A stretch of DNA of 64,000 bases from a virus (lineage: Duplodnaviria > Heunggongvirae > Uroviricota > Caudoviricetes): IMG/VR virus record IMGVR_UViG_2660238580_000002. The stretch is one strand, 5' to 3'. A model generated the notes under the pieces. The model did not search any database and was not told the DNA's origin. It saw only the letters and a program-made list of their open reading frames with translations. Shown here piece after piece: positions 16,782-59,889 of the stretch (positions are counted from its first letter, which is position 1; the number at the start of each line of letters is the position of its first letter). Made by a program: the position numbers and the translations under genes.

Positions 16782-17572
16782 TTACGCCAGTTGTACGGAC
16801 ACGAACGCATCAGGGTCAGCCAGCAGCATCAGCGGTGCTGACTGAATCATGGTGAACTCACGCGCCGGATCGCCGGTGGTCACCCAGTTTTTCGGGTAAC
16901 GGGCAGAGGCGTTAATGCCTTCGCGCTGTGCGTCCGCATCCTGAATGCAGCCATAGGTGCGCAGACCGCGTGCCTGAGTGTTCCCCAGCACCATCGTGTT
17001 GTCCGGCAGGAAGTTCTTTTTGACGCCGTTTTCCACGTACTGTCCGGAATACACGACGATGGCCACATCGCCATACATCCCCTTATAGGACACCGCTTTG
17101 CCCAGGTCTTTCACCGCTGTCTCCAGCTCGGAATTAGAGCCACGACGGGTATCCAGCTTCTCCTTGACGGCTTTGAAGGAACGGAACAGCGCCCAGCCTT
17201 TCGGATCGAACACGATGATATTCACCACACCGCTGGCGTTCAGCGCGTAGGCTTCGATATCGTCGGTCGGGTCATACGTGGACTTGTCACGCTTGCTCCA
17301 CTCCGTGCCGCCGGACTGCGTGATGTTATTCTCCTCACTGCGGCCCATATCCACCTCAACCGGATCGAAGGCTTCACCGGTCATGGTGTATTTGCCCTTA
17401 AGCACGGCAGAAACTGCCTGCATCTCTTCGACCTGAGCAATGGCCAGCTCTTCGTCACGCATGTTCTGCATGATGATGCGACGGCGGCGGTAAGCCGGGT
17501 CCGCCAGATTCTGCGGATCTTCATCCGGCAGGCGACGCAGGGTCATCTGCGGATTCACTTCATGCTTCGGCT
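16782..17572 (-). pseudogene. E: Major capsid protein E, 3' fragment (from ...PKHEVNPQ to C-terminus), cut off from its 5' part by the satellite
   Basis: Reading frame continues lambda gpE from codon ~80 onward; no start codon or N-terminus here. Confidence 0.9.
17563..17572. repeat. Left junction direct repeat TGCTTCGGCT (att core within gene E)
   Basis: Identical 10-mer at 30000-30009; E-derived sequence stops being contiguous after it. Confidence 0.8.
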
Positions 17573-17706
17573 ACATGAGTCAAATATGAAAGGATGTGAA
17601 TGATTTGATTACGTTTTAGCTATAGAATTGAAATGGAAAATCCTTGAATGCAATACAACGTGCAATACATGGATGAAAACCATCACTCATTTAACAAGAG
17701 GAATCT

Positions 17707-18612
17707 ATGCGCTCACCCAACAGAATGCATGAACGCTCAACATTTTATAAGTATATGTCGTTGAATACCGCGAAGATTGTTCTTGATTCATGCAGCCTTA
17801 GATGGAGTTCTCCGGTCCTATTTAATGACCCTTTTGATGTTCCAAGAGAAGTTATGCCTGGTATTAACGAAATTAATATTGGCAAAGCTTTAGCCCGCAA
17901 GTTAATAGCGGAGTTGATTACCCCCAGAGAAGACATACAAAATTTAAACCCTAGAATTAGAACAATGCTAAGTGATTTCCAAAAGTCATTTCCTTTAGGC
18001 ATACCCGCAGGATTAATTGAAAGATTTCAAGAAATGGTAAACATTCCACCAGTTGGGATTGGCGCTCCTGCGGCAATACAAGAAATGAAAGATGTCTGGC
18101 GAGGAATGCTTAATAACAGAAGGATTTTGTGTTTATCTGAGAGCCCTATAATCACTCCTATGTGGAATCACTATGCCGATAAATATAAAGGTATAGTTAT
18201 CGAATTTGATTGTGTAGACTTTCTGGATAGCGCTTGGTTAATAGCCAAACCTATGAAATACACAGATAAAATGCCTCTAACTCACACTGCTGAAGGGATG
18301 GCCGAGTTGCTTTTCATGCCAGACAATAAGTCAATTGAATATATCAATAATGAGATAATATTCATAAAAACAGAAGAATGGGCATATGAAAGAGAGTGGA
18401 GAATTTCAACCTACGCTAGGCCAAATAGCACTGGTCAATATAGCGACTTAAAATTTCACCCTTTTGAGTTAAAATCTGTAATACTTGGTCCTCTTTTTGA
18501 TGCCAGCGAGTTCGATGAAGTCGCATCACTAGTTAAGATGTATCCAAGAGCGAAATTATTTAAAAGTTCATTTGGGAACGACAGAAAAATATCCATAGTA
18601 CCACTACCTTAA
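17707..18612 (+). CDS. DUF2971-like protein (uncharacterised satellite cargo)
   Basis: 301-aa ORF with motifs FYKYMS...LFNDPFD, YKGIVIEFD, EEWAYEREWR recalled as DUF2971 hallmarks; only plus-strand gene at this satellite end. Confidence 0.5.
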   Translation: MRSPNRMHERSTFYKYMSLNTAKIVLDSCSLRWSSPVLFNDPFDVPREVMPGINEINIGKALARKLIAELITPREDIQNLNPRIRTMLSDFQKSFPLGIPAGLIERFQEMVNIPPVGIGAPAAIQEMKDVWRGMLNNRRILCLSESPIITPMWNHYADKYKGIVIEFDCVDFLDSAWLIAKPMKYTDKMPLTHTAEGMAELLFMPDNKSIEYINNEIIFIKTEEWAYEREWRISTYARPNSTGQYSDLKFHPFELKSVILGPLFDASEFDEVASLVKMYPRAKLFKSSFGNDRKISIVPLP

Positions 18613-18718
18613 AAGGTCAAATGCTTTTGACAAATAAAATCTATCGCCAGTTTTACTGGCGACTTTTAAGCAACAAAGAACCACCTAAGCACTCTTCCTA
18701 CCTATGGTTTCATTTGTT

Positions 18719-19270
18719 TTAACTTCGCTGATTATCCTTGATATACCTTTCAGCCATATCTGGAATGTTATCTGAGATCTGGTAAGCTCGAATAAATGCT
18801 TTACTGACCTCCATCTTAATGAAGTCCTGATACCGTTTTTCCATGCCAGGAAACTGTCGACAGATCGCAAGTGGAAGACTATCAATGATTGCTCCAACTT
18901 CCCCAGTTAATTTCGACAAGGCATAAGTCGCAAATGCAGTGTCAATTACCTCACCTGTTTCGCTGGCATTCTTCAGTTCCTGTGCGTCGGCCTGCGCACG
19001 CGTAAGTCGATGGCGTTCGTACTCAATAGTCCCTGGCTGGAGATCTGCCTCGCTGGCCTGGCGCAGTTCTTCAACCTCCCGGCGCAGCTTTTCGTTCTCA
19101 ATTTCAGCATCCCTTTCGGCATACCATTTTATGACGGCGGCAGAGTCATAAAGCACCTCATTACCCTTGTCACCGCCTCGCAGAACGGGCATTCCCTGCT
19201 CCTGCTAGTTCTGAATGGTACGGATACTCGCACCGAAAATGTCAGCCAGCTGCTTTTTGTTGGCTTCCAT
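18719..19270 (-). pseudogene. Terminase small subunit Nu1 homologue with in-frame amber codon at codon 22
   Basis: ATG at 19270 reads MEANKKQLADIFGASIRTIQN then TAG (19205-19207) where helper Nu1 has TGG; ORF resumes at Met28. Confidence 0.8.
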
Positions 19271-19515
19271 TGTTCATTCCACGGACAAAACCAGAGAAAG
19301 GAAACGACAGAGGCCAAAAAGCCTGTTTTTAGCACCTGTCGTTTCCTTTCTTTTTAGGGGATGTTTTTAATAAAAACATTAAGTTACGGCGAAGAAGAAC
19401 GGAAACGCCTTAAACAGGAAAATTTTCACAAATAGCGAAAACCCGCGCGCCTGACGCCCCGTAGCCTGTCAGATCGCCGGAAAGGACCCGCCAGCCAGAG
19501 CGGGCCCTAATTTCA
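19271..19515 (-). promoter_or_regulatory. Satellite cos region (cosB-like conserved, cosN-equivalent divergent)
   Basis: Closely similar by eye to helper cos at 36190-36420, but the 12-mer at 19447-19458 differs from helper cosN at several positions. Confidence 0.6.
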
Positions 19516-19899
19516 TCAACCAATCAGCTTATAGCGACCATCCCGTGCATTGCGGCGTACACGCTCAATCTTGAGGCATAGCGCCGCATCTGGCTTTTTT
19601 GGGACAGGTACGCGGCAATATTCAGAAGCGCGAGGAATATTATTTATCCAGTCGATCACTTCACTTAAATACCAGGCCTTACGCCCTTCCGTAACCTGCA
19701 CACGCTCCGGGAACTCTCCACTAGCCTCAAGGTTTAGCAGTGTACGCCGACTCAGGGTTGTAATTTCCATCACCTGATTCATATCAACAAGGCGCTCGCT
19801 TAAACACATTTTGTCAGCGATAGCTTTTAATTCCTCTACAGCTGGATTCGGGTACATCATTTCGGCAATTGGCTTAAGGTCATTGTAATCATTCTGCAT
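19516..19899 (-). CDS. AlpA/excisionase-like HTH protein
   Basis: 127-aa ORF; C-terminal segment resembles AlpA-family HTH; lies next to satellite cos. Confidence 0.45.
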   Translation of the reverse strand: MQNDYNDLKPIAEMMYPNPAVEELKAIADKMCLSERLVDMNQVMEITTLSRRTLLNLEASGEFPERVQVTEGRKAWYLSEVIDWINNIPRASEYCRVPVPKKPDAALCLKIERVRRNARDGRYKLIG

Positions 19900-19910
19900 T
19901 GTATCCCCCT

Positions 19911-20252
19911 TTACACACGAGCCAGCGGCTGAACAGAAATACCTGAGCCAACAAACGCTGCAATCTTTACTGACAGTTCTTTTACAGACTCAGGCCAGTT
20001 CAGAGCATCAACATTTAAGACACCTGTCTTATAGACCTGAGCCCGTGTTTTTTTCGCGGTGTCGATTTGTACAGCGGAAACATAAACCGCTTTACCTACG
20101 CTCGAACCATCCCATACCACCAGTGCACCTGTTGCATCTTCCTGCATCAGTGGCGTAAATGCAGGAATTACCCCTTTATTAGCTGAAAATATCCCCAGCG
20201 TAGTCACCAGTGCTTCAGTGCCAGCCATGAGTTCAGTGTAATGAGTAGCCAT
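19911..20252 (-). CDS. Head decoration protein, gpD-like (satellite-encoded)
   Basis: 113 aa; aligns by eye with lambda gpD (PLM...WDG... core). Confidence 0.65.
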   Translation of the reverse strand: MATHYTELMAGTEALVTTLGIFSANKGVIPAFTPLMQEDATGALVVWDGSSVGKAVYVSAVQIDTAKKTRAQVYKTGVLNVDALNWPESVKELSVKIAAFVGSGISVQPLARV

Positions 20253-20261
20253 TGCTCCCCC

Positions 20262-21302
20262 TTAGCCAATGCGAACGGTAACAAAACGATTGATGCGGGC
20301 CGGTATTGGCTGTGGTGCTGAATGTGTCTGCACATATTCAATAGCCGGATCACCAGGTACAATATAGTTTTTCGGTGCAAGTTCGGCTTTAGTCAGCCCC
20401 ATTCGGATTAGCTCCGGATCCTGAATACCGCCATAGGCGACAATCCCCTGAAGAGCCGTATTGCCAAGCACCATCAAATCAGGATCAAGGAAATGTTTTT
20501 CTGTTCCGTCCTCGTCGGTATAACGCCCGCTGTAAACAACAATCGCAACATCGCCCATATACCCTTTAAAACTCACCGAATCACCAAGGTCTTTAAGGGC
20601 CGTTTCCAGTTCGGAATTAGAACCACGACGGGTATCCAAAGCCTCTTTTATCGCTCTGAATGAACGGTATTTCTTCCATACATTACCACCCATAATGATG
20701 ATATTAGTGACGCCCTCACTAAATTCTGCGTAGCTCTCAATATCATCATTTGGATCAAAAGTTTCTTTATCCTTACTTGACCACTCAGTACCGCCAGACT
20801 GAGTGATGATATTTTGTGGTTTTATATTCCAGTCCAGCTCATAACGTTCAATACCATCGCCCTCAATGATATTTTTCCCCGTTGTGATTGCCTGAACAGC
20901 AAGCCATTCAATACGTGCACGAATAGCTTTAGCTTGATTTACAATCGCCTGTTTAACTTTAATATTACGCGCCCCAAAAGCATTGTATTGCTCAGGTGAT
21001 ACACCAGCAGGGCGCACAGCTAACTTATTTGGATCAATGCTGCTTTTCGGCTTCATATAGCCTGGACGAATTGTTTTTGATTCGTACCCTTCGTCACGTG
21101 AAACTTTACTACCCACCATAGGAGAACAAAACGCTGCAATTGGGATATTTGGATCGTCGATTGTATCAAGAATAATATCGCGCGATTCAAACATTACCGA
21201 GCGAGTAAAAAACAAACTGGTAAACAACGCATTTAGTTGTTTTTGTACATCTACAGCATTAACCACCTGTACAAGCTGGGTAGGCGAATATAAATCAACC
21301 AT
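20262..21302 (-). CDS. Major capsid protein, gpE-like (satellite-encoded, divergent)
   Basis: ~347 aa from Met with AGAGGA RBS; C-terminal half close to lambda gpE (ITQSGGTEWS...DTRRGSNSELETA...), N-terminal half divergent. Confidence 0.75.
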   Translation of the reverse strand: MVDLYSPTQLVQVVNAVDVQKQLNALFTSLFFTRSVMFESRDIILDTIDDPNIPIAAFCSPMVGSKVSRDEGYESKTIRPGYMKPKSSIDPNKLAVRPAGVSPEQYNAFGARNIKVKQAIVNQAKAIRARIEWLAVQAITTGKNIIEGDGIERYELDWNIKPQNIITQSGGTEWSSKDKETFDPNDDIESYAEFSEGVTNIIIMGGNVWKKYRSFRAIKEALDTRRGSNSELETALKDLGDSVSFKGYMGDVAIVVYSGRYTDEDGTEKHFLDPDLMVLGNTALQGIVAYGGIQDPELIRMGLTKAELAPKNYIVPGDPAIEYVQTHSAPQPIPARINRFVTVRIG

Positions 21303-21587
21303 ACACATCCTCTTTGCATTCATTAAAAATAATTGTGGATATATGCTATCACCAATATTTGTCATGCGAATACATGCAACCGAGTGCAATGTTGTATAAA
21401 GTTTTGGGATGACAACTTCAGCGCGGATAATTAGTGTTAATATATTCACTCCCTTTGGTCGGGATTTATGTAGCATGCCGGAAAATTTATTTTTTCCGGC
21501 CTTTTTTATTGGCAATATTTAAAACGGAATATCATCTCCCCATTGCTCATTATCTCCCACTGGTGGATGGCTTCCTTGCTGATCTGC

Positions 21588-21968
21588 CTATTGTTTTGCT
21601 CTGTTCAGTGCGTCAGTAGCCTGACCCTGTTGACCTTTTTTGCCGCCCGGTCGCACCGTTCGCGCACTGATTACGCTGTCTGCGATAACCTGCCAGCCCT
21701 GCCGCGTTTCACCGTTCTGTCCAGTCCACTGGCTCACCTGCATGTTACCCGCCACGCTCAGGAGTTCGCCTTTGTGATGCTTTGCCAGCGCATCGGCTTG
21801 TCTGCCAAACGCCAGCACAGATAACCACATCGTCGCCGTTCCGTCATCTGCCTGGCTGCATGGCAAAGATACCGCCATCCGTGCCAGTGTCATGGGTGTT
21901 CCCTTGCTGGTATGTTTTACCTGTGGGTCGTCCACCAGCCGCCCGTAAGCTGCTATTTGCGCCGTCAT
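21588..21968 (-). CDS. SSB-like OB-fold protein
   Basis: 126-aa ORF with SSB-like pattern (W..VLAFGRQA..L.KG..L.V.G); weak. Confidence 0.4.
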   Translation of the reverse strand: MTAQIAAYGRLVDDPQVKHTSKGTPMTLARMAVSLPCSQADDGTATMWLSVLAFGRQADALAKHHKGELLSVAGNMQVSQWTGQNGETRQGWQVIADSVISARTVRPGGKKGQQGQATDALNRAKQ

Positions 21969-21979
21969 GCTGCCTGCTC

Positions 21980-22222
21980 TCAGGACTTAATATTGATGGT
22001 TGTCACTTCCTCCGCTTCGGCAATCTCCCGTTCGGTCAGCGTGGCAAAGTTTGCAGCCGCCGTTGTCATGAATGCGCTTATCAGTTCGGGATGTGCTTTC
22101 GCGTATCCTTCCCCGGCGTTGCGGTCTATTGCCTTAATCGCCACCCTTAGCCAGTGTTCAGCCATATCAAGGGCGCGGTAATGTGGCTTTATATGTTTGT
22201 TCAGTTTTCCTGATGTGTGCAT
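21980..22222 (-). CDS. Hypothetical protein
   Basis: 80-aa ORF between ori and SSB-like gene. Confidence 0.4.
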   Translation of the reverse strand: MHTSGKLNKHIKPHYRALDMAEHWLRVAIKAIDRNAGEGYAKAHPELISAFMTTAAANFATLTEREIAEAEEVTTINIKS

Positions 22223-22259
22223 TTTTATTTTTACCCCCTCGTTTAAAAAGTTTTTTGTG

Positions 22260-22500
22260 CACCACCACCTTGTCTACCTTGTCTACCTGATTAGTTATCA
22301 GGCCAGTAATGGCGCGGGTTTCAGAGAGGTAGACAGCCCCAAATAGCTGTCTACCTCATCTCTACCCGTCTCCTTACCTGTCTACAAAAATGGGTAGATA
22401 AGGTAGATAACAGGTAGACAGTGAAAAATAGTTATCTACCTGCATTAATACATTGAAATAAAAGTATTTTATTTCAGTCAGGTAGACAAGGTAGATAACC
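22260..22500. repeat. Satellite replication origin: ~12 iterons (GGTAGA[C/T]A core, both orientations) around an AT-rich tract
   Basis: Repeated gtctacc/ggtagac motifs directly upstream of pri-rep. Confidence 0.8.
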
Positions 22501-22511
22501 ATTGCCATTTT

Positions 22512-24263
22512 TTATAAAAACGCATCGCAATCATCAGTAGTCGTTGCGTTGGTCTGAGTGACTCCCTTAACTTTTCGCGTAATATATTCATATCCGTAAA
22601 CTTTCGCCGCTGACCTCATAGCCTTTCCGAACTCATTCACGCTCAAACATTTCCCCTTTCCTGTATATGCCATGAAGGCCATATAGACACGGTAAAGGCT
22701 GTTTCTGGTCGTGTACTTCACGGTGTCACCACCACCGCCCATCATTAGCCCACGAGCTTCCTCCAGAAACTCCAGCGCCGCGCAAAGCTCAACAACCGGA
22801 TCCGTTTGCTGCTTTATTGCCAGAGCTTCATCACCGTCACGCTGTTCCAGTAATAAAGCCCGTGCCTTTTCAGGGTCAGCAAAATTAGCCAGCAAGCGGC
22901 GGATAATTACGGGGATTTCTGCCGCTATCTTTTCCGGTAATTCCTTGTCTTTTTCGTCCTCCCTTACAATGTTGTCGAACCGGAAAATCACCCGACGGCG
23001 TGACACACCTCCGGCCCGTTCGGTAAAGATCATCGGGTCGTTATTGGTTGCCAGTACCACCGCCCTTATTATCGTCGTGAATCGCTTCTCATATTTCGGG
23101 TTAATTTCAACGGGATCGCCTCCCGTGATTTTCTTGATGCCCGTGCCTTCCCCCGTATATTTCGGCTGATCGGCAAGGACGATAAGACGACTCCCGACAA
23201 CCTGCGCGCGCCCTCCTGCATCATCGAGTGATGTCATCTCTGCGCTTACGGTGTTCTGTTTGCCAGCAAGCAGGGTGGCAATATGAGTAAATGTGCTCTT
23301 TCCGCTTCCCCCGTCTCCGGTGGCCTCAATGAACATCTGCCAGTCGTAGCGGTTCGCCATAATCATGTATAACGCGGCACATATACGCATCATCTTGCGC
23401 GGGTCTTTTCCTGCAGCATGTTCAAGCCATTTATGGAAATTTGGCGCATTATCGCGGATGTTTTCCCCTGCTACTGGTGGCGTGTACTCAATACCATTGT
23501 GCGTGGTGCTCCAGTGCTCCGGCGAGTGCGGAGAAAATTCCCCCGTTTTCAGATTAAGCACACCATTAGTGAACGGTAGCAAATCACCGGACGGCTCCCC
23601 CATGGGGGCGGCAATAACTTTTAACGCTTCCACGGCGTTATTGATTACGCGCTTGCTGAACGTGGCCCTGTGCTCTGAATAGATCGCCACCATTTCGCGG
23701 CTCAGCTCCATTGTGCTGACCGGACACCATACCCCGCCGCGCCATACGTGGACGATTTCACTTTCTGCATGAACACAAACACCATCAAAGCGATCGGCAA
23801 GTAGTTGTGCCCGCTCACTGTCTGCCATCTGTGAAAGTTGCGCCTTTTGCTTCGTCGGAAGATTAAGCACCAGGCTTTCCCCACGCTCGCATTCCTCTTT
23901 GAGTCGCGGCAACTGGTCGGATAAATCCACTGGGCTGGTGTCAGTAATCCCCGCGTATTCGTGTACGGTCTTCACTCCAGCCACAGCCAGTAACGTAACA
24001 ATCTGCGTCATGCTGTGCTCTGTGATATGTCCTGCGCGGTAAACACGCACACACTGACGATCTTCATCAATGATCCGGTAATCGGTGATGTTTTTCAGTT
24101 GCTCATCAGCCAACACGACAGGCGGCACATCGTCGGCGGCAATATGTTTACCCGCCCATTCCTGCCACTCTTTCGCATGGCTCCACGCATCACTACCTGC
24201 AAAGATGATTACCTCTGTCAGTCTGTCGCGTGGCTGTTTTTTTAAGTTCGGTGCCAGTTTCAT
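22512..24263 (-). CDS. Primase/helicase replication protein (Pri-Rep, P4-primase family)
   Basis: 583-aa ORF with P-loop GDGGSGKST and helicase-like C-terminus; adjacent iteron ori. Confidence 0.8.
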   Translation of the reverse strand: MKLAPNLKKQPRDRLTEVIIFAGSDAWSHAKEWQEWAGKHIAADDVPPVVLADEQLKNITDYRIIDEDRQCVRVYRAGHITEHSMTQIVTLLAVAGVKTVHEYAGITDTSPVDLSDQLPRLKEECERGESLVLNLPTKQKAQLSQMADSERAQLLADRFDGVCVHAESEIVHVWRGGVWCPVSTMELSREMVAIYSEHRATFSKRVINNAVEALKVIAAPMGEPSGDLLPFTNGVLNLKTGEFSPHSPEHWSTTHNGIEYTPPVAGENIRDNAPNFHKWLEHAAGKDPRKMMRICAALYMIMANRYDWQMFIEATGDGGSGKSTFTHIATLLAGKQNTVSAEMTSLDDAGGRAQVVGSRLIVLADQPKYTGEGTGIKKITGGDPVEINPKYEKRFTTIIRAVVLATNNDPMIFTERAGGVSRRRVIFRFDNIVREDEKDKELPEKIAAEIPVIIRRLLANFADPEKARALLLEQRDGDEALAIKQQTDPVVELCAALEFLEEARGLMMGGGGDTVKYTTRNSLYRVYMAFMAYTGKGKCLSVNEFGKAMRSAAKVYGYEYITRKVKGVTQTNATTTDDCDAFL

Positions 24264-24559
24264 TTTTTGCCCCTGAATGCGTTAATCATGCTTTTCATTT
24301 TCTGGATGTTTCCCCGCGCTTTTTCCCTGCTGATGGGCTTACTGCGGGGTGCGGCATATACCAGGGAAAAATCACGCCGGAACTGATAAACAGGCATCAC
24401 GCAGTCATAGCTATACCCCTCACGACGGTAAGTGATGCGCCGTTCTGCCACGCCTTTAATCGTTACCGTGCCGCCGTATTTATCGCGGTAAATATCGCCG
24501 TTCATAAATTCAGGCCGAGCGGGGCCGCTGGCAATAAAGCCAGAATTTTTCATTTCCAT
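24260..24559 (-). CDS. Hypothetical satellite protein
   Basis: 99-aa ORF, stop overlaps pri-rep start. Confidence 0.5.
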   Translation of the reverse strand: MEMKNSGFIASGPARPEFMNGDIYRDKYGGTVTIKGVAERRITYRREGYSYDCVMPVYQFRRDFSLVYAAPRSKPISREKARGNIQKMKSMINAFRGKK

Positions 24560-24576
24560 ATTATTTATTCCTCGAC

Positions 24577-24798
24577 TTAACTCGACTTATTTGATAGCAG
24601 GGCACTATTTATTGCGTCATTGAGTTTTTCTGCTGCTTCATCAATAAGTGACAACAGGCCATAAGCAATATTTGCATCTTCATTGTCATTTATGCAATCA
24701 AGCCACATATTTAATATTGCTTTTGCTGAATTATTTAAAGTTAATGAACTTTCTGCACATGCTAACAATTTAAAAAAGACTTCCCGTTCTGTATTCAT
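24577..24798 (-). CDS. Hypothetical satellite protein
   Basis: 73-aa ORF in minus-strand operon. Confidence 0.4.
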   Translation of the reverse strand: MNTEREVFFKLLACAESSLTLNNSAKAILNMWLDCINDNEDANIAYGLLSLIDEAAEKLNDAINSALLSNKSS

Positions 24799-24990
24799 TT
24801 AATCCCCCACCAGCTTACTTTCTTCCTCAATCAAAAAACTAGCGACACTTCCCGAAAGACGCGCCAGTAGGCTCGCCAGTGCGGATATATCAGCATCTGT
24901 AATTTTGTTCGGGTATACCTCAAGAAGGCGGCAAATAATTTCTGTCTGGTGCGCACGTTCAGCGGCTTCGTGTAATGTGATTTCCTGCAT
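24799..24990 (-). CDS. Hypothetical satellite protein
   Basis: 63-aa ORF in minus-strand operon. Confidence 0.4.
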   Translation of the reverse strand: MQEITLHEAAERAHQTEIICRLLEVYPNKITDADISALASLLARLSGSVASFLIEEESKLVGD

Positions 24991-25182
24991 TAATGCACCT
25001 CTTTTAATTCATACACTGCTGAAATAATGACTTGTGATAAGCCATATTCTGATGATTCGCTTCTCACCGCAGCAATAGCCGTCTGAACATTAACAGCCTT
25101 CACGTTCTGAGCGATACCAATTGTGTGGCCTAGTGGGTTAACCGCACGAGCAAATACACGGAAGGTTTTAAGCACGGCATAC
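24990..25182 (-). pseudogene. Satellite ORF body separated from its start by IS629
   Basis: Frame is open across the IS629 target site but has no ATG downstream of the insertion; the track ORF borrows IS sequence for its N-terminus. Confidence 0.4.
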
Positions 25183-25224
25183 TGAACCGCCCCGGGTTTC
25201 CTGGAGAGTGTTTTATCTGTGAAC

Positions 25225-26115
25225 TCAGGCTGCCAGATCATCGTTTCCGATGGAAGCATAATAAGCTTTTTCTGCTTCTGCCGGAGGAGTATGGCCCAGC
25301 CTTTCCAGCAATCGTCGATTGTTATACCAGTCCACCCACGTGAGTGTGGCCAGTTCCACTTCTGCACGGTTTTTCCAGCTCTTACGGTGTATTACCTCCG
25401 CTTTGTAAAGACCATTGATGCTCTCCGCCATCGCGTTGTCATACGAGTCGCCTGTACTTCCTGTTGATGCCAGTAATCCGGCTTCCTTAAGCCGCTGTGT
25501 GTAGGCCAGCGATACATACTGAGAACCTTTATCACTGTGATGGACCGTGCCGGACGGTCGACGGGCCCATAACGCCTGCTCCAGTGCATCCAGCACGAAT
25601 GTCGTTTCCATGGACGATGAGACCCGCCACCCCACGATGTATCCGGCAAACACATCAATGATGAACGCCACATAGACGAAGCCCCGCCATGTGCTGACGT
25701 AAGTAAAATCAGCCACCCACAGCTGGTCAGGTCGTTCTGCCACGAACTGACGGTTTACGCGGTCGCCTGCGGCAACGGCTTTCCGGCTGATGGTCGTACG
25801 GACCTTTTTACCCCGGAGAACACCGGCAAGTCCCATAACCGCCATGAGACGTGCCACAGTGCATCTGGCCACTCTGATACCTTCCCGTAACAACTGACGC
25901 CAGACTTTACGCACACCGTATACCTTGTGATTTTCATCGTATACGCGCTGTATCTCTTTCTTCAGCCAGTCATCGCGCTGCGCACGGGCACTGCGTTTAT
26001 CCGGATGATGTCGCTGTTGCTGACAGTGGTAATACGTTGACGGGGCAATATGCAGTTCGCTGCATAGCGGTCCGACCCCGTACTGCTCACGCAGCTTATC
26101 CAGCAGTGGCATCAT
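25225..26115 (-). CDS. IS629 transposase OrfB (DDE, made as OrfAB by frameshift)
   Basis: 296-aa [21 protein letters not shown]... Confidence 0.9.
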
Positions 26116-26438
26116 TTTTTCCAGAGGCGGTCGAACTCCGCCTTCGCAAAATAAGCGGAAGCCTGGCGAAGGATATCGTTACTGCGGCGCAGTTCACGAT
26201 TTTCACGTTCCAGCTCTTTCAGACGCTGACGTTCAGCGGTGGTGAGCCCTCCATCACCGCCCCCGGTATCCCGCTCATGCTGGCGAACCCAGACACGCAG
26301 AGTCTCCGGCGTACAGCCAATCTTTGGAGCAATGGAACAAATTGTCGCCCATTGTGAGTCATATTCGCTCTGACTTTCCAGAACCATACGGACTGCCCGT
26401 TGACGGACTTCGGGGGAAAAACGAGTATTTTTAGTCAT
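26112..26438 (-). CDS. IS629 OrfA
   Basis: 108-aa [22 protein letters not shown]... Confidence 0.9.
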
Positions 26439-26492
26439 CCTGTTTACCTCTTTCTCAGGAAGTTTAGTCTCCAGGATTCCCGGGGCGGTTCA

Positions 26493-26684
26493 TACCTCCT
26501 GACGAATACGGGCGGCAAATATCATCACGCAGCCAGTTGGGGATTGTTGGCGGGCTTCCTGTTCGCTGGCGGCCTCGATGTGTATTACGCGTGGTTGTGC
26601 GGTGCTCAGGGCGATAAAACGCCAGATGTATTTATTCAGGTTGTGCGGGTCCCGCCCTTGCGGGTGTGTGGTATGATTTCTCAT
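26493..26684 (-). CDS. Small satellite protein, last 3 codons replaced by IS629 end
   Basis: 64-aa ORF; stop codon supplied by the IS terminus. Confidence 0.45.
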
Positions 26685-26779
26685 AGCTATCTCGATACTG
26701 TTGCTATCGTTGGTGGTTAGAAGCCCGTTGGTGTTCCTAGCGCCTTCGGGCTTTGCTTTTTTAAGTGCCTCCGTGTTAA

Positions 26780-26823
26780 GGTGGTCACCTAACAGTAAAA
26801 AGGCTAATTCAATAGGTGGTCAC
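26780..26823 (+). promoter_or_regulatory. Two GGTGGTCAC direct repeats (operator-like) in the divergent promoter region
   Basis: Identical 9-mers at 26780-26788 and 26815-26823, 35 bp apart, upstream of the RHH gene. Confidence 0.35.
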
Positions 26824-27015
26824 TTGTCAACAATCAAACGCGATAAAAGTCCTAAGGGTGATGGGCAATCTCCACAATTCAGAATGCGAATTTCTCCAGA
26901 GCTAAAAGAGCAATTCGACAAAGAAGCGCAGAGCGACGGCATAAGCCTAGCCAACTGGCTTAAAGAATTAGGGCGCAAAGAGCTGCTACGGCGCGGTATT
27001 GAACCAAAAGGATAA
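26824..27015 (+). CDS. Ribbon-helix-helix (Arc/MetJ-like) DNA-binding protein, candidate satellite repressor
   Basis: RHH-like FRMRISPELKEQFDKEA...LANWLKELG; possible TTG start after AGGTGG (ATG alternative at 26884); divergent from leftward operon. Confidence 0.45.
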   Translation: MSTIKRDKSPKGDGQSPQFRMRISPELKEQFDKEAQSDGISLANWLKELGRKELLRRGIEPKG

Positions 27016-27042
27016 GAGTAATTGAAGTCAAGGAGCTAACAC

Positions 27043-27399
27043 ATGAAATACGAATTCTTCGCAACAAGTAGCAGTAGTTTGGATGTATACATAGTCACTG
27101 TATCAAACGATTCTAGCTCGCTAATCATGACTTGCAATTGTCCAGCAGGAAGTAAAGGTATTCTATGTAGACACCGTAAAGCTTTAATTACCGGAAAAAT
27201 CCGTGGTATATTCACTCCCCCAAGAAGGAATAATCCCGAAAAGTTACAAGAAGCTATAAATTTAATAACCACATATGGCATAGATAAAACATTAAAGTTG
27301 TACACTGATGAGTTAGAACGAGCAGAACAGACTTGGATAAGTGTTCGCGATAATTTGAGAGCAATGATAAACGCTCTTGTTGAACCACCTAAATATTGA
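27043..27399 (+). CDS. SWIM-zinc-finger-like small protein
   Basis: 118-aa ORF with CNCPAGSKGILCRH (CxCxnCxH). Confidence 0.4.
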   Translation: MKYEFFATSSSSLDVYIVTVSNDSSSLIMTCNCPAGSKGILCRHRKALITGKIRGIFTPPRRNNPEKLQEAINLITTYGIDKTLKLYTDELERAEQTWISVRDNLRAMINALVEPPKY

Positions 27400-27530
27400 A
27401 CTGTTCACATTGCCTATCAGTCGACAACCTCGTATTCTGATTAAGGCTAACTATATACTCACATTGGCGACCAATTCTGGTCGCCTTTATCCACCATTTT
27501 TATAACATCATAGATTAAAAGTGTTAATCC

Positions 27531-28361
27531 TTACCCCCTGAATGGAATTGATGAGGATTTAATTTCCACTGAACTAAATCCTTTTGAATCCAAGAACATT
27601 TTTATACCAGCCTCAATGAAATCATAATCGTTTGTCGGGCCAATAGTAATACTTTTAATTGGTAACTTCCTATGATCTTTATTACCAATGATGATATAAG
27701 GGATGACACCATTATTATTTATTCTGAATTGCACATCTGGTATTAGTATGCGCGGAGTAAATACCAATCTAAATTCATTTTCTTCGATAAAACTAGGATG
27801 TTTAAAAAATGGGATGTATTTAGATATAAATTGATACGTAGAGGCCATTGTTACAAAATGATCATTCTTTTCTTTAATATTAATACCATTACAAGAAAAA
27901 AACGCCCCCAACTCCTTACTCATCTTAGTAACATCGTTATTATTTGAATATATAACATCATGTGCAACACAATTTAAATAAATATTTTGAGAAAAGCTCA
28001 CAAGTTCATCCGCATCAAACTCAATGCAAACACCCTGTTTATTTCCGTAACCTCTCCACTGACTTAACTTATCGTTTTCCTTACAAAAAGAGATGCTATA
28101 AACATGTTTATCAATCCCTTTTTCTTTTTGTAACCTCCCTTTCTCATACATGTCAAGAGACTTGAGCAAAATAGTTTTCTTATCTTTTGGAATGATATTG
28201 TCATCAACTATTTTAATTGTATTTCGAAAGCATTCACATCCATGGTTAGACTCCTCTTTATCATTTAAGAAATATATGTTTGTAGCCCATAAAGAATTAG
28301 AGTCTAATATACCTTTCAAACCAAAAAGATCTGTATAATGAAATATAGCCACAATGCCCAC
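27531..28361 (-). CDS. DUF2971-like protein (second copy; cargo downstream of alpA)
   Basis: 276-aa ORF with FHYTDL...LWATNIYFLNDKEE, SQWRGYG..GVCIEFD, FIEENEFRL motifs. Confidence 0.5.
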   Translation of the reverse strand: MGIVAIFHYTDLFGLKGILDSNSLWATNIYFLNDKEESNHGCECFRNTIKIVDDNIIPKDKKTILLKSLDMYEKGRLQKEKGIDKHVYSISFCKENDKLSQWRGYGNKQGVCIEFDADELVSFSQNIYLNCVAHDVIYSNNNDVTKMSKELGAFFSCNGINIKEKNDHFVTMASTYQFISKYIPFFKHPSFIEENEFRLVFTPRILIPDVQFRINNNGVIPYIIIGNKDHRKLPIKSITIGPTNDYDFIEAGIKMFLDSKGFSSVEIKSSSIPFRG

Positions 28362-28368
28362 CTAATAG

Positions 28369-28599
28369 TTAAGTTGTTTCCCACTCACCTCGAATCCATG
28401 CCTGCACTTCTGAAAGACGATATGCAACAGCAGTGGAACCAATCTTGATCCGCTTAGGAAATTTTCCTTCCTTCTCCAGCTTCCAGCGTGTGCTGTTCGC
28501 AAGAGTGGTTAGCTCCCGACATTCTTTCTCACGGATCATTCGGTCAATGTTAGGAATGTACTCCAGACCCTTTTTATCAACAATTGCCATTTTTTTCAT
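28369..28599 (-). CDS. alpA: AlpA-family transcriptional regulator
   Basis: 76-aa ORF directly downstream of int, AlpA-like HTH. Confidence 0.75.
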   Translation of the reverse strand: MKKMAIVDKKGLEYIPNIDRMIREKECRELTTLANSTRWKLEKEGKFPKRIKIGSTAVAYRLSEVQAWIRGEWETT

Positions 28600-28600
28600 G

Positions 28601-29836
28601 TTAACCAGCCTTTTGTTTGAGGATTGTCACTTTTGAATCAGCACCTGCGATGCTATTGAGATATGTAGTCCAGAGTTCCAGAGCATCCAGTTTTTTAGCC
28701 ATAAACTTACTCCGGTTGTAAACACCTGCCACGCCAGGTAGCGCATGGCCTAACAGTTGTTCTACTACATAAAATTCAACACCGAGATCACTTAGATGAG
28801 TAGATAGCGTTCTTCTAAGGTCGTGTAGTGACCATTGTTTTTCATGGCCCAAACGTTTACCGATTTTCCCCCCAATCTTGCTTACGCTTTCTCTAATTCG
28901 CAGACTTCCCAGCACATAACCAGTATGTTTTGTCTCTTCGTGAACATCCGTTACCCACTGTCGTAGAATTTCAGGTACTGGTCTGACGATTTCAACACCG
29001 GTTTTTGAGTGTTCTTTTGGTACAGTCCAAACCCAACTTTCTAGATCCCATTCGCTCCATTCTGATAATCGGGCTTCACTCATTCGACATCCAAATACTG
29101 TACAAAGCACAAACATTTTTCGCGTGTATTCAGACATTAGTTTTAAATCAGGCTCGACAAAAATTGCCTTCCAGAGCTGGCCCAGTTCGGCTTCATCCAG
29201 AACCCGATCCCGCTTACCTGCAATCTGCCCCACATCACTCATGCGCAAATCCTTTAAAGCATCACACGTCGCGTACTGGCGTACCCGACAAAAACGAAGA
29301 GCTAATTTAGTGTCAGAAAAAACATACGCCGCCATAACTGGTGCATTACGTTTAATTCGGTCAAAACAGTCCAGCCATTCATATAGGTGAGTGTCATTTA
29401 CGGGCAAATGACCGATATAGGGAAAGATATGCTTTCGAAATCTGCCAAGCGTTACAGCATGAGTTTTACGACGCACCTTACAGTAATTTTCATACCAGTA
29501 ATTTAGTGCATCCTCCACTGTGACCGGCTTTAAGCGTTCTTCAGCCTGAATCTTAATCTGGATACGCGGATCACGTTTGTCAGCCAACCAACCACGGCAC
29601 TCGTCGCGCTTTTCTCTTGCCTGTTTGAGTGACATATCAGGATATTTACCCAACGTTAGCCAGACCGGAGCAGCCCGGCCACCTGCTAACCTGTAGAAGA
29701 AAACAAAGCTCACAGCCCCCTTAGTACTCACACGAATAGAAAGCCCCTTTCCATCAGCAATGGTGATCTGCTTTTCTCTGGGTTTCCCCAGATATCCTTT
29801 AAGCGCTTTGTCGCTCAGTTTGTTCTCGCCAGCCAT
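28601..29836 (-). CDS. int: Tyrosine integrase (P4-type)
   Basis: 411 aa from MAGENKLSDKALKGY; catalytic HDLRRT...LGH...Y region; adjacent to right att repeat. Confidence 0.9.
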   Translation of the reverse strand: MAGENKLSDKALKGYLGKPREKQITIADGKGLSIRVSTKGAVSFVFFYRLAGGRAAPVWLTLGKYPDMSLKQAREKRDECRGWLADKRDPRIQIKIQAEERLKPVTVEDALNYWYENYCKVRRKTHAVTLGRFRKHIFPYIGHLPVNDTHLYEWLDCFDRIKRNAPVMAAYVFSDTKLALRFCRVRQYATCDALKDLRMSDVGQIAGKRDRVLDEAELGQLWKAIFVEPDLKLMSEYTRKMFVLCTVFGCRMSEARLSEWSEWDLESWVWTVPKEHSKTGVEIVRPVPEILRQWVTDVHEETKHTGYVLGSLRIRESVSKIGGKIGKRLGHEKQWSLHDLRRTLSTHLSDLGVEFYVVEQLLGHALPGVAGVYNRSKFMAKKLDALELWTTYLNSIAGADSKVTILKQKAG

Positions 29837-29968
29837 TTTTAGCCCCAAAAAGCAATACAAGCTGCAATACAGAGATGATTGCAACACACAGATAACGAGG
29901 AAAATCCAGTGAAAGCGCCAGATAATCTTATTCTTTATTATCAAAGAATTAAGTGTAAAAACCAGCAA

Positions 29969-30244
29969 CTACACGAAAGCCTCAGAAAGCCATGCTAAGT
30001 GCTTCGGCTTGACATATCCCGGCGTAAATTCAGAGGTGGAGCCGCCACGGGAACGGATAACCTCACCGGAAACAATCGGCGAAACGTACAGCGCCATGTT
30101 TACCAGTCCCGGAATTTGTGAGAGATAGACTTTCTCCGTGGTGAAGGGATAGCTCTCACGGAAAAAGAGACACAGAAACAGCGGATCAAACTTAAATTTC
30201 TGCTCATTTGCCGCCAGCAGTTGGGCGGTTGTGTACATCGACAT
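29969..30244 (-). pseudogene. E: Major capsid protein E, 5' fragment (codons 1-82 fused to 9 satellite codons and a stop)
   Basis: MSMYTTAQLLAANEQKFKFDPLF...GYVKPKH then LAWLSEAFV*. Confidence 0.9.
30000..30009. repeat. Right junction direct repeat TGCTTCGGCT (att core within gene E)
   Basis: Identical to 17563-17572; E sequence resumes immediately after. Confidence 0.8.
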
Positions 30245-30299
30245 AAAAAAATCCCGTAAAAAAAGCCGCACAGGCGGCCTTTAGTGATGAAGGGTAAAG

Positions 30300-30632
30300 T
30301 TAAACGATGCTGATTGCCGTTCCGGCAAACGCGGTCCGTTTTTTCGTCTCGTCGCTGGCAGCCTCCGGCCAGAGCACATCCTCATAACGGAACGTGCCGG
30401 ACTTGTAGAACGTCAGCGTGGTGCTGGTCTGGTCAGCAGCAACCGCAAGAATGCCAACGGCAGCACCGTCGGTGGTGCCATCCCACGCAACCAGCTTACG
30501 GCTGGAGGTGTCCAGCATCAGCGGGGTCATTGCAGGCGCTTTCGCACTCAATCCGCCGGGCGCGGTTGCGGTATAAGCCGGGTCACTGTTGCCCAGCGGC
30601 TGGTAATGGGTAAAGGTTTCTTTGCTCGTCAT
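30300..30632 (-). CDS. D: Head decoration protein D
   Basis: [12 protein letters not shown]... 110 aa, lambda gpD. Confidence 0.95.
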
Positions 30633-35669: not shown

Positions 35670-36189
35670 TCAGCAACCCCGGTATCAGTTCATCCAGCGC
35701 GGCTGCTTTGTTCATGGCTTTGATGATATCCCGTTTCAGGAAATCAACATGTCGGTTTTCCAGTTCCGGAAAACGCCGCTGCACCGACAGGGGGATCCCG
35801 TCGAGAATACTGGCAATTTCACCTGCGATCCGCGACAGCACGAAAGTACAGAATGCGGTTTCCACCACTTCAGCGGAGTCTCTGGCATTTTTCAGCTCCT
35901 GTGCGTCGGCCTGCGCACGCGTAAGTCGATGGCGTTCGTACTCAATAGTCCCTGGCTGGAGATCTGTCTCGCTGGCCTGCCGCAGTTCTTCAACTTCCCG
36001 GCGCAGCTTTTCGTTCTCAATTTCAGCATCCCTTTCGGCATACCATCTTATAACGGCGGCAGAGTCATAAAGCACCTCATTACCCTTGCCACCGCCTCGC
36101 AGAACGGGCATTCCCTGTTCCTGCCAGTTCTGAATGGTACGGATACTCGCACCGAAAATGTCAGCCAGCTGCTTTTTGTTGACTTCCAT
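35644..36189 (-). CDS. Nu1: Terminase small subunit Nu1
   Basis: 181-aa ORF MEVNKKQLADIFGASIRTIQNWQEQG..., lambda Nu1. Confidence 0.95.
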   Translation of the reverse strand: MEVNKKQLADIFGASIRTIQNWQEQGMPVLRGGGKGNEVLYDSAAVIRWYAERDAEIENEKLRREVEELRQASETDLQPGTIEYERHRLTRAQADAQELKNARDSAEVVETAFCTFVLSRIAGEIASILDGIPLSVQRRFPELENRHVDFLKRDIIKAMNKAAALDELIPGLLSEYIEQSG

Positions 36190-36420
36190 TGTTCATTCCA
36201 CGGCCAAAAACAGAGAAAGGAAACGACAGAGGCCCAAAAGCTCGTTTTCAGCACCTGTCGTTTCCTTTCTTTTCAGGGGGTATTTTAAATAAAAACATTA
36301 AGTTACGACGAAGAAGAACGGAAATGCCTTAAACCGGAAAATTTTCATAAATAGCGAAAACCCGCGAGGTCGCCGCCCCGTAACCTGTCGGATCACCGGA
36401 AAGGACCCGTAAAGTGATAA
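36190..36420 (-). promoter_or_regulatory. Prophage cos site (cosB/cosN/cosQ); cosN 12-mer at 36367-36378
   Basis: Reverse complement contains GGGCGGCGACCT flanked by lambda left/right end sequence. Confidence 0.85.
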
Positions 36421-38005: not shown

Positions 38006-38276
38006 GATGTTACCGTAGTATGTGAGTATCCATCGAATAGACACCAAGCAAAAAAGCTCCCGAAGGAGCCTTCATTTTCACTTTTTTAAATCCAACGACA
38101 GACGGCTGGCATTTAAGTATTGTGAAATATTATCAAATGTAATCATCATTGATTTACAAAAGATACATTTTGCCCCGAAAGGATTCATGTCAGAAACATC
38201 AAAAGATGATGTTCTATACTGGGAACCATGACAACACGGGCATCTAAAGTGAATATGGTTTGTAATATTGTCTACC

Positions 38277-58296: not shown

Positions 58297-58390
58297 ATTC
58301 AGCATTTGTGCTTGTTCTGACAGTTTTTCTTGTTTCCGGAGAGCCAGTTGAACCGCCCCGGGTTTCCTGGAGAGTGTTTTATCTGTGAAC

Positions 58391-59281
58391 TCAGGCTGCC
58401 AGATCATCGTTTCCGATGGAAGCATAATAAGCTTTTTCTGCTTCTGCCGGAGGAGTATGGCCCAGCCTTTCCAGCAATCGTCGATTGTTATACCAGTCCA
58501 CCCACGTGAGTGTGGCCAGTTCCACTTCTGCACGGTTTTTCCAGCTCTTACGGTGTATTACCTCCGCTTTGTAAAGACCATTGATGCTCTCCGCCATCGC
58601 GTTGTCATACGAGTCGCCTGTACTTCCTGTTGATGCCAGTAATCCGGCTTCCTTAAGCCGCTGTGTGTAGGCCAGCGATACATACTGAGAACCTTTATCA
58701 CTGTGATGGACCGTGCCGGACGGTCGACGGGCCCATAACGCCTGCTCCAGTGCATCCAGCACGAATGTCGTTTCCATGGACGATGAGACCCGCCACCCCA
58801 CGATGTATCCGGCAAACACATCAATGATGAACGCCACATAGACGAAGCCCCGCCATGTGCTGACGTAAGTAAAATCAGCCACCCACAGCTGGTCAGGTCG
58901 TTCTGCCACGAACTGACGGTTTACGCGGTCGCCTGCGGCAACGGCTTTCCGGCTGATGGTCGTACGGACCTTTTTACCCCGGAGAACACCGGCAAGTCCC
59001 ATAACCGCCATGAGACGTGCCACAGTGCATCTGGCCACTCTGATACCTTCCCGTAACAACTGACGCCAGACTTTACGCACACCGTATACCTTGTGATTTT
59101 CATCGTATACGCGCTGTATCTCTTTCTTCAGCCAGTCATCGCGCTGCGCACGGGCACTGCGTTTATCCGGATGATGTCGCTGTTGCTGACAGTGGTAATA
59201 CGTTGACGGGGCAATATGCAGTTCGCTGCATAGCGGTCCGACCCCGTACTGCTCACGCAGCTTATCCAGCAGTGGCATCAT
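58391..59281 (-). CDS. IS629 transposase OrfB
   Basis: Translation identical to copy 1 OrfB. Confidence 0.9.
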
Positions 59282-59604
59282 TTTTTCCAGAGGCGGTCGA
59301 ACTCCGCCTTCGCAAAATAAGCGGAAGCCTGGCGAAGGATATCGTTACTGCGGCGCAGTTCACGATTTTCACGTTCCAGCTCTTTCAGACGCTGACGTTC
59401 AGCGGTGGTGAGCCCTCCATCACCGCCCCCGGTATCCCGCTCATGCTGGCGAACCCAGACACGCAGAGTCTCCGGCGTACAGCCAATCTTTGGAGCAATG
59501 GAACAAATTGTCGCCCATTGTGAGTCATATTCGCTCTGACTTTCCAGAACCATACGGACTGCCCGTTGACGGACTTCGGGGGAAAAACGAGTATTTTTAG
59601 TCAT
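59278..59604 (-). CDS. IS629 OrfA
   Basis: Translation identical to copy 1 OrfA. Confidence 0.9.
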
Positions 59605-59889
59605 CCTGTTTACCTCTTTCTCAGGAAGTTTAGTCTCCAGGATTCCCGGGGCGGTTCAAGTTGATATTGCAGTCAGTGTTCACAGGACAATGCAGGAGTG
59701 TATGACTGCAGCAACCGAACAGAAAATTCCCGGTAACTGTTACCCGGTCGATAAAGTTATTCACCAGGATAATATCGAAATCCCGGCAGGTCTTTAAAAC
59801 AGTTCCGTAATAAATATCCGGTTTCATTCTTATATGCCAGCAATGGCAGGGATTTGTTCATCCTTAAATCTGTCATGAGGTTAAAACAA

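Follow-up and report, generated by a model that had tools for sequence, protein, structure and literature searches.

The stretch of DNA analysed here (64 kb, in the following called the window) contains a dense cluster of short repeats next to a gene annotated as primase/helicase. The question is whether this cluster is the replication origin of a satellite element and, if so, which protein recognises it. The first-pass annotation had placed the cluster directly upstream of the primase/helicase gene. The two are indeed adjacent, but rep is encoded on the minus strand and the array starts 14 bp past its stop codon, on the 3' side; it is the next gene of the operon (22222..21980, minus strand) that has the array upstream. 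The features concerned are:

22512..24263, minus strand: rep ('pri-rep'), 583 aa, intact
22271..22497, both strands: whole iteron array, 11 conserved GGTAGA-core iterons plus 1 degenerate copy, centre near 22384
21980..22222, minus strand: next operon gene after the array, 80 aa, phrog_1231

The number of about 12 copies of GGTAGA(C/T)A given earlier is right. Ten exact copies of GGTAGAYA were counted inside 22271-22497, and two more carry one mismatch (GGTAGAGA at 22359-22366 and TGTAGACA at 22379-22386). The complete window contains 11 exact copies compared to 1.97 expected, a number reached by none of 100 shuffles, and the sole copy outside the array is found at 38269. For the 6-bp core GGTAGA, 11 of the 16 occurrences in the window fall in the array; the remainder of the island contains none, and every other 300-bp window of the 64-kb scan holds at most one. 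The array is genuine and not a chance clustering. As had also been proposed, the copies stand in direct and inverted arrangement, six on the plus and six on the minus strand, with centre-to-centre spacings of 9, 48, 20, 11, 20, 14, 9, 11, 20, 48 and 9. The forms found in the window are TGTCTACC and GGTAGACA. Together the copies form a quasi-palindrome of about 227 bp, whose outer doublets (22270-22290 and 22478-22498) provide 21-nt arms that are 95% complementary and 187 nt apart; the fold z-score of the single-stranded array (-9.3) results from these inverted repeats. From the rep-proximal to the rep-distal side, the region is built up as follows:

22481..22497, plus strand: rep-proximal iteron doublet, GGTAGACAA GGTAGATAA, 9-bp period
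22441..22480: AT-rich spacer of 40 bp, candidate DNA-unwinding element, with a 30-nt window reaching 87% AT
22412..22441: palindromic unit P1, 30 bp, with head-to-head iterons at 22413-22420 (plus) and 22433-22440 (minus)
22393..22409, plus strand: inner iteron doublet, GGTAGATAA GGTAGATAA
22379..22386, minus strand: degenerate iteron copy, TGTAGACA, not kept as an iteron in relatives
22348..22366, minus strand: inner iteron doublet, GGTAGACA plus GGTAGAGA, 11-bp period, inverted match to 22402-22421
22327..22356: palindromic unit P2, 30 bp, with iterons at 22328-22335 (plus) and 22348-22355 (minus), 12/12 complementary
22301..22326: iteron-free conserved block, GGCCAGTAATGGCGCGGGTTTCAGAG, lying in the GC-rich spacer, the mirror counterpart of the AT-rich one
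22271..22287, minus strand: rep-distal iteron doublet, 9-bp period, inverted partner of 22481-22497
22241..22259: conserved A/T tract, AAAAAACTTTTTAAAC in rep orientation, directly after the distal doublet and followed by the ribosome-binding site and start of the next gene

P1 and P2 are direct repeats of each other, 85 bp apart and 80% identical. The AT-rich tract described earlier as flanked by the repeats corresponds to 22441-22480 and has iterons on both sides, although off-centre: the two iterons of the doublet 22481-22497 stand on the rep-proximal side, against 9-10 copies on the rep-distal one. With a summed nearest-neighbour free energy of -28.5 kcal/mol, compared to a window mean of -41.1 (sd 3.9), the stretch 22444-22473 within it is the least stable 30-bp duplex between 20 and 25 kb; over all 64 kb it belongs to the top 0.07%. 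In all relatives, also those of other iteron classes, the spacer is rich in A and T, and the rep-proximal doublet occupies the equivalent position in every relative examined. Across 49 distinct aligned origins the columns of the block at 22301-22326 are near-invariant. The A/T tract at 22241-22259 is kept in the origins of the GGTAGA type, and tracts resembling it also come after the distal doublet in other iteron classes and in the crr region of phage P4. The counterpart of the copy at 22379-22386 in the related island EcCICFT073 reads CAGACAGG, and the degenerate copy is possibly non-functional. The stretch 22271..22497 is the proposed core of the origin.

The gene next to the array encodes a protein composed of four parts:

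Rep residues about 1-130: Toprim-like domain
Rep residues 152-282: D5_N domain
Rep residues 315-416: SF3 helicase/DUF5906
Rep residues 487-578: C-terminal winged-helix origin-binding domain

The helicase part is well supported by Pfam (D5_N 6e-16, DUF5906 6e-10), by a Walker A motif GDGGSGKST and by the match of residues 225-441 to the helicase of SaPI5 PriRep (PDB 7OLA, 7e-15). The similarity to the NCBIfam model TIGR01613 (P4-family primase C-terminal domain, 5.5e-30) amounts to 104.3 bits, just under the curated cut-off of 108.7 bits. Residues 487-578 match the origin-binding winged-helix domain of P4 alpha (PDB 1KA8, 2.3e-7). For the N-terminus, sequence searches for a primase domain in residues 1-161 returned noise only (DUF4332 with E = 0.049 and designed 'Pizza' repeat proteins), and the one lead, Toprim, came from the fold search. 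Neither canonical Toprim acidic residues nor a P4-type primase domain are evident in Rep. As read from the alignment, the position of the Toprim catalytic Glu appears to be occupied by a nearly invariant Ala (A22), and the DxD motif after the third strand appears to be absent. No catalytic motif was detected that would support the 'primase' half of the name Pri-Rep. Helicases of the DUF927 type and the AAA_25/RepA type carry this N-terminal module as well.

We consider it very likely that the array serves a helper-embedded phage-inducible chromosomal island (PICI) as its replication origin, located immediately 3' of the island's rep gene. Three lines of comparative evidence lead to this reading, namely the homology in position and sequence to the tested rep-ori module of EcCICFT073, the selective conservation of the iteron cores in 49 distinct relatives, and the covariation of the iteron sequence with the class of the C-terminal origin-binding domain of Rep. 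They equally support the earlier proposal of an origin that is bound by the adjacent Rep and constitutes the satellite's own replicon.

EcCICFT073 is the model Gram-negative PICI (Fillol-Salom et al. 2018, PMC6092414). After cloning of its rep and ori region in a temperature-sensitive plasmid, the formation of colonies at 44 °C required both rep and ori; the plasmid with pri and ori persisted at the restrictive temperature, whereas the derivatives with deletions of ori or pri did not (PMC6092414). In this element two iteron sets flank an AT-rich region immediately 3' of rep (PMC6092414, Fig. 2a legend). For comparison with the window, EcCICFT073 was located in the CFT073 chromosome. The two Rep proteins exhibit 80% amino acid identity, which is distributed unevenly over the N-terminal domain (48%), D5_N (93%), the helicase (95%) and the origin-binding domain (83.5%). 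The 288-bp region 3' of the EcCICFT073 rep gene shows 75% DNA identity to the putative origin of the window, and the GGTAGA cores occupy the same 11 positions, within 1 nt, in both. The AT-rich spacer, the conserved GC block and the A/T tract are all shared, as is the gene order DUF4222, rep, ori, small ORF, SSB, capsid, decoration protein. In contrast to EcCICFT073, which occupies a chromosomal site, the island of the window lies inside a prophage capsid gene and contains an IS3 and two nonsense mutations. On account of the homology of both Rep and origin, the array can be regarded as the orthologue of an experimentally supported origin. It shares with this tested element the location directly 3' of the initiator gene and the two iteron sets flanking an AT-rich region, and comparative evidence indicates that its iteron class is cognate to its Rep.

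To extend the comparison we used 80 relatives from IMG/VR together with loci from E. coli, Shigella, Serratia, Morganella and E. albertii; the breadth of relatives stems from the scan of viral contigs, and the scan of genome contigs gave four loci. All 49 distinct downstream regions accompanying a Rep at least 71% identical to that of the window carry 7-12 GGTAGA cores, with 9-12 cores in 47 of them. In an alignment of 49 distinct origins with pairwise identities of 0.44-1.0 (median 0.68), the mean entropy was 0.42 bit in iteron-core columns vs 1.04 bit in spacers (Mann-Whitney p = 1.4e-13), meaning that the iteron cores stay conserved in spite of drift in the spacers. The iteron consensus of the family is R-GGTAGA-N-R-R.

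Indications of what the repeats belong to come from islands in which Rep and the remaining genes differ in their relatedness to the window. One helper-embedded PICI in a capsid gene E (locus L010) is nearly identical to the island of the window in its integrase (99.5%), AlpA (98.6%), capsid (99.4%), decoration protein (98.2%) and second HTH protein HTH2 (100%), yet the identity of the Reps drops to 48% and the array consists of CTGTTCACC iterons. Judging from this pattern, L010 represents a natural swap of the rep-ori module. The converse is found in L002, where integrase and capsid show only 45% and 55% identity, yet Rep is 80% identical and GGTAGA is kept. When the last 110 residues of 89 Reps were clustered at 70% identity, seven clusters were obtained, each with one set of related iteron words. 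Reps with an overall identity of 51-55% (L005 from Serratia, L006 from Morganella, and L081-L092) are accompanied by arrays of TGTTCA(C/T) or GGTATACA words, in the same layout as in the window, i.e. doublet, AT spacer, inverted pair, doublets and inverted terminal doublet. DUF927-type Reps (L007, L009) carry TTGTCCCA arrays. A link to P4 is also apparent, as the origin-binding domains of the TGTTCA-type Reps are 44-52% identical to that of P4 alpha, compared to about 32% for the GGTAGA type. Sorted by Rep, the iterons are GGTGAACA in P4 and some PICIs, GGTAGACA in the window and EcCICFT073, and TTGTCCCA with DUF927-type Reps. Finally, L083 and L084 encode Reps of about 97% identity whose differences cluster in the last 80 residues, and the two loci carry GGTATACA and GGTGTTCA iterons, respectively. 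The module swap in L010, the converse case L002, the seven clusters, the P4 link and the pair L083/L084 together indicate that the repeats are tied to the C-terminal domain of Rep and to nothing else in the element.

A third locus, L089, has an array in which the words GGTATACA and GGTGTTCA of L083 and L084 are mixed. Comparison of these three arrays looks like a natural specificity switch in progress. The rep-ori type of the window was also observed in other targets: in L003 (E. coli Q5) the element splits a prophage portal gene, and in L002 (E. coli SW4848) the chromosomal tqsA gene, which suggests that the replicon module travels with different integrases.

At its borders the island itself has a 10-bp direct repeat, TGCTTCGGCT, which forms the att cores at 17563-17572 and 30000-30009, and the island splits a lambda-like major capsid gene E into an N-terminal fragment (30271..29969) and a C-terminal fragment (17558..16782). 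Without IS3 it comprises about 11 kb, is co-oriented with the late genes and has its own E and D homologues. All its PICI-type genes, i.e. integrase, AlpA-like HTH, DUF4222, rep, SSB and the E, D and Nu1 homologues, are located on the minus strand within 17563-30009. Their order is integrase, AlpA-like HTH, IS3, small ORFs and DUF4222, Rep, the 80-aa ORF and the SSB homologue, followed by the capsid E homologue, the decoration D homologue, a second AlpA-family HTH and the Nu1 homologue. Two genes not yet placed are:

29968..28601, minus strand: tyrosine integrase
21588..21968, minus strand: SSB-like gene (Pfam SSB 4.8e-15), in-frame stop before the DDIPF tail

By its borders and gene content, we assign the island to the helper-embedded PICIs of the published 11capE type, residing in a lambda-like prophage, and the RefSeq annotation of an identical locus (L001) agrees with this layout. 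The configuration has been described for Eco567.11capE, whose published copy is that of NRG857c and for which PMC10111431 states an origin downstream of pri. Eco567.11capE resembles the island of the window in its insertion in the capsid gene E and in having its own capsid gene, a primase-family gene and an origin. Two DUF2971-family genes at the ends of the island (17707-18612, plus strand, and 27531-28361, minus strand) are apparently accessory cargo; a search for NCBIfam matches to them gave none.

Several genes of the island are damaged. In the SSB-like region (21480-21968, minus strand) a stop follows codon 126 and the continuation encodes ...GDDIPF, so that the copy is left without the acidic C-terminal tip; the gene is annotated as a pseudogene in L001. 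SSBs bind their partners through this acidic C-terminal tip. The homologue of Nu1, the small terminase (18719-19330, minus strand), contains an in-frame stop in the N-terminal DNA-binding region (IRTIQN*QEQG), and what remains of the ORF corresponds to the Pfam model from residue 27 onwards. IS3 occurs twice in the window, in identical copies (25183-26492 and 58349-59658), the first with an ALIL frameshift pseudoknot at 26041-26157. This first copy is located between alpA and the genes of the rep operon, near the site of an Icd-like gene in the IS-free locus L001, and may uncouple rep from its inducible promoter. We also observed that 18933-19490 of the island is a 92% identical copy of the Nu1/cos region of the helper (35852-36409) with a diverged cosN core (GAGGTCGCCGCCC in the helper, GCGCCTGACGCCC in the island), which could bear on satellite-specific packaging.

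With an IS3 between alpA and rep and nonsense mutations in two further genes (SSB-like and Nu1-like), the origin may be silent in this strain. The array could then be an origin by descent and a dead relic in this copy of a decaying island, to which the IS1 found inside rep of the identical locus L001 would add. We regard this as rather unlikely, since rep is full-length with all invariant helicase residues present, and comparison with the 49 relatives shows neither the 11 conserved iteron positions nor the AT tract to be damaged. Furthermore, a relic would concern the activity in this strain and not the identity of the sequence.

The comparison with P4 leads to a different explanation. P4 alpha has a homologous helicase of the P4/D5-family SF3 type and a C-terminal winged-helix origin-binding domain, and P4, too, has 8-bp iterons in mixed orientation. 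According to the GenBank annotation NC_001609, from which the P4 repeats were taken, crr lies 46 bp 3' of the alpha gene, the very position of the array in the window, and the annotated ori is 4.5 kb away. As crr is a cis-required region annotated apart from the start site, the array might by analogy be a crr-like cis-acting replication enhancer that is bound by Rep while synthesis starts elsewhere in the island. In addition, the TGTTCACC-type PICI arrays of E. coli share a 'TGAA(A)TTAAAAGAGAAAA' segment with the units of P4 crr. There are, however, clear differences. P4 alpha comprises 777 aa compared to 583 aa in the window Rep, and the annotated type-1 iteron of P4 (TGTTCACC) differs from TGTCTACC at two adjacent bases and is not used in the array of the window. 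P4 also has two iteron clusters (ori and crr) kilobases apart, plus type-2 repeats, whereas the island has a single one and hence no other recognisable target of Rep. As the array also has its own strongly unstable AT tract, and cloned rep with the adjacent array was sufficient for maintenance of the EcCICFT073 plasmid (PMC6092414), we hold a crr-like enhancer to be very improbable.

An origin at this position corresponds well to the origins of SaPIs, which comprise 6-12 short iterons immediately downstream of rep, opposed around an AT-rich region, and are used by Reps that are self-loading helicase-initiators with a C-terminal winged-helix domain (PMC9371898). The array of the window is likewise situated downstream of rep, in addition to the match between the ATPase region of Rep and SaPI5 PriRep mentioned above. 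The SaPI iterons differ in being unrelated in sequence, only 5-6 nt long and arranged around a roughly central AT region, compared to the off-centre AT tract and the long quasi-palindrome of the window.

The iteron plasmids pPS10, RK2, R6K and F (Rep_3/TrfA) have tandem direct repeats of 17-22 bp and a winged-helix Rep that is not a helicase, and they depend on DnaA boxes and DnaB/DnaC loading. Common to these plasmids and the window are initiator-binding repeats next to an AT-rich unwinding element. Unlike in the plasmids, the repeats of the window are 8-9 bp long and found in both orientations, and an SF3 helicase serves as the initiator. We detected no DnaA box with up to one mismatch in 22200-22520 and no IHF consensus in the array, so that a DnaA-dependent origin of the plasmid type was dropped. 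Neither a sigma-70 promoter nor an intrinsic terminator was found in a scan of 21900-22700, which gives no support to a promoter or terminator reading of the array. The lack of all four in the places searched fits a self-loading, self-contained initiator.

Repeats that fill the one larger gap between the genes of a unidirectional operon, just before the ribosome-binding site of the next gene, with palindromic units typical of operators and no terminator between rep and the downstream genes, could also be operators for a transcription regulator of the capsid/packaging operon and have nothing to do with replication, but we give this next to no credence, as they follow the class of the Rep origin-binding domain and not AlpA/HTH regulators or downstream genes, differ in L010 in spite of identical regulators, have no promoter-like site in or beside them, and correspond to an ori in EcCICFT073 whose deletion impaired plasmid maintenance (PMC6092414). 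Rep binding may nevertheless have a secondary regulatory effect. Other assignments were rejected on positional grounds or by database search: the cos-like region of the island (18933-19490) is outside the array, ruling out a cos/packaging site; the att cores at 17563-17572 and 30000-30009 are 5-8 kb distant, which speaks against integrase arm sites; and an Rfam scan of 17000-30500 for known RNA elements matched only the ALIL frameshift pseudoknot of IS3.

Taking the array as the origin used by Rep, and by homology with the SaPI Reps, initiation might proceed as follows. Rep would act as a self-loading SF3 (D5-like) helicase whose C-terminal winged helix recognises the 8-9-bp iteron RGGTAGAYAR. 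The 11 or 12 iterons form two opposed sets, each arm being composed of a doublet, a 48-bp spacer, a head-to-head pair and a second doublet. Rep protomers on opposed iterons are expected to distort the DNA and to melt the AT-rich spacer of about 40 bp at 22441-22480, after which Rep hexamers could form around the separated strands and proceed outwards with unwinding, the DNA then being copied by polymerase III of the host. Priming is most likely performed by host DnaG, our preferred guess because no catalytic primase motif is evident in Rep. Binding, melting site, bidirectionality and primer source are all inferred, and bidirectional theta replication is plausible.

The type of origin, its position 3' of rep, the iteron/AT architecture and its function are already published for this family (PMC6092414). 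Apart from the one error of orientation, the array had been identified correctly as a known element, and the correct polarity is rep, then origin. Matches to the origin region were obtained in 569 of 5426 complete E. coli genomes; they cover at least 80% of the array in 509 genomes and reach an identity of at least 99% in 68. The matches in E. coli are always chromosomal, and the features listed under them are the two flanking genes only. Recognising the array marks the island as a self-replicating satellite instead of a prophage remnant, which matters mainly for annotation. An active origin in a helper-embedded island could amplify the surrounding late region of the prophage, a possibility already raised in PMC10111431.

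The specificity switches among PICIs and P4 (GGTGAACA, GGTAGACA, GGTATACA/GGTGTTCA and TTGTCCCA) might be a graded natural series and define orthogonal replicon groups, with the Toprim-like N-terminus of Rep, a domain shuffled among three classes of helicase, serving as a docking module and not as a primase; we propose this tentatively, as a real possibility to which we do not quite incline. If true, mutually orthogonal replicon groups would allow several satellites to live and replicate side by side in the same cell. The pairs of Rep domain and iteron described here provide a ready-made set for studying how origin specificity changes in satellites.
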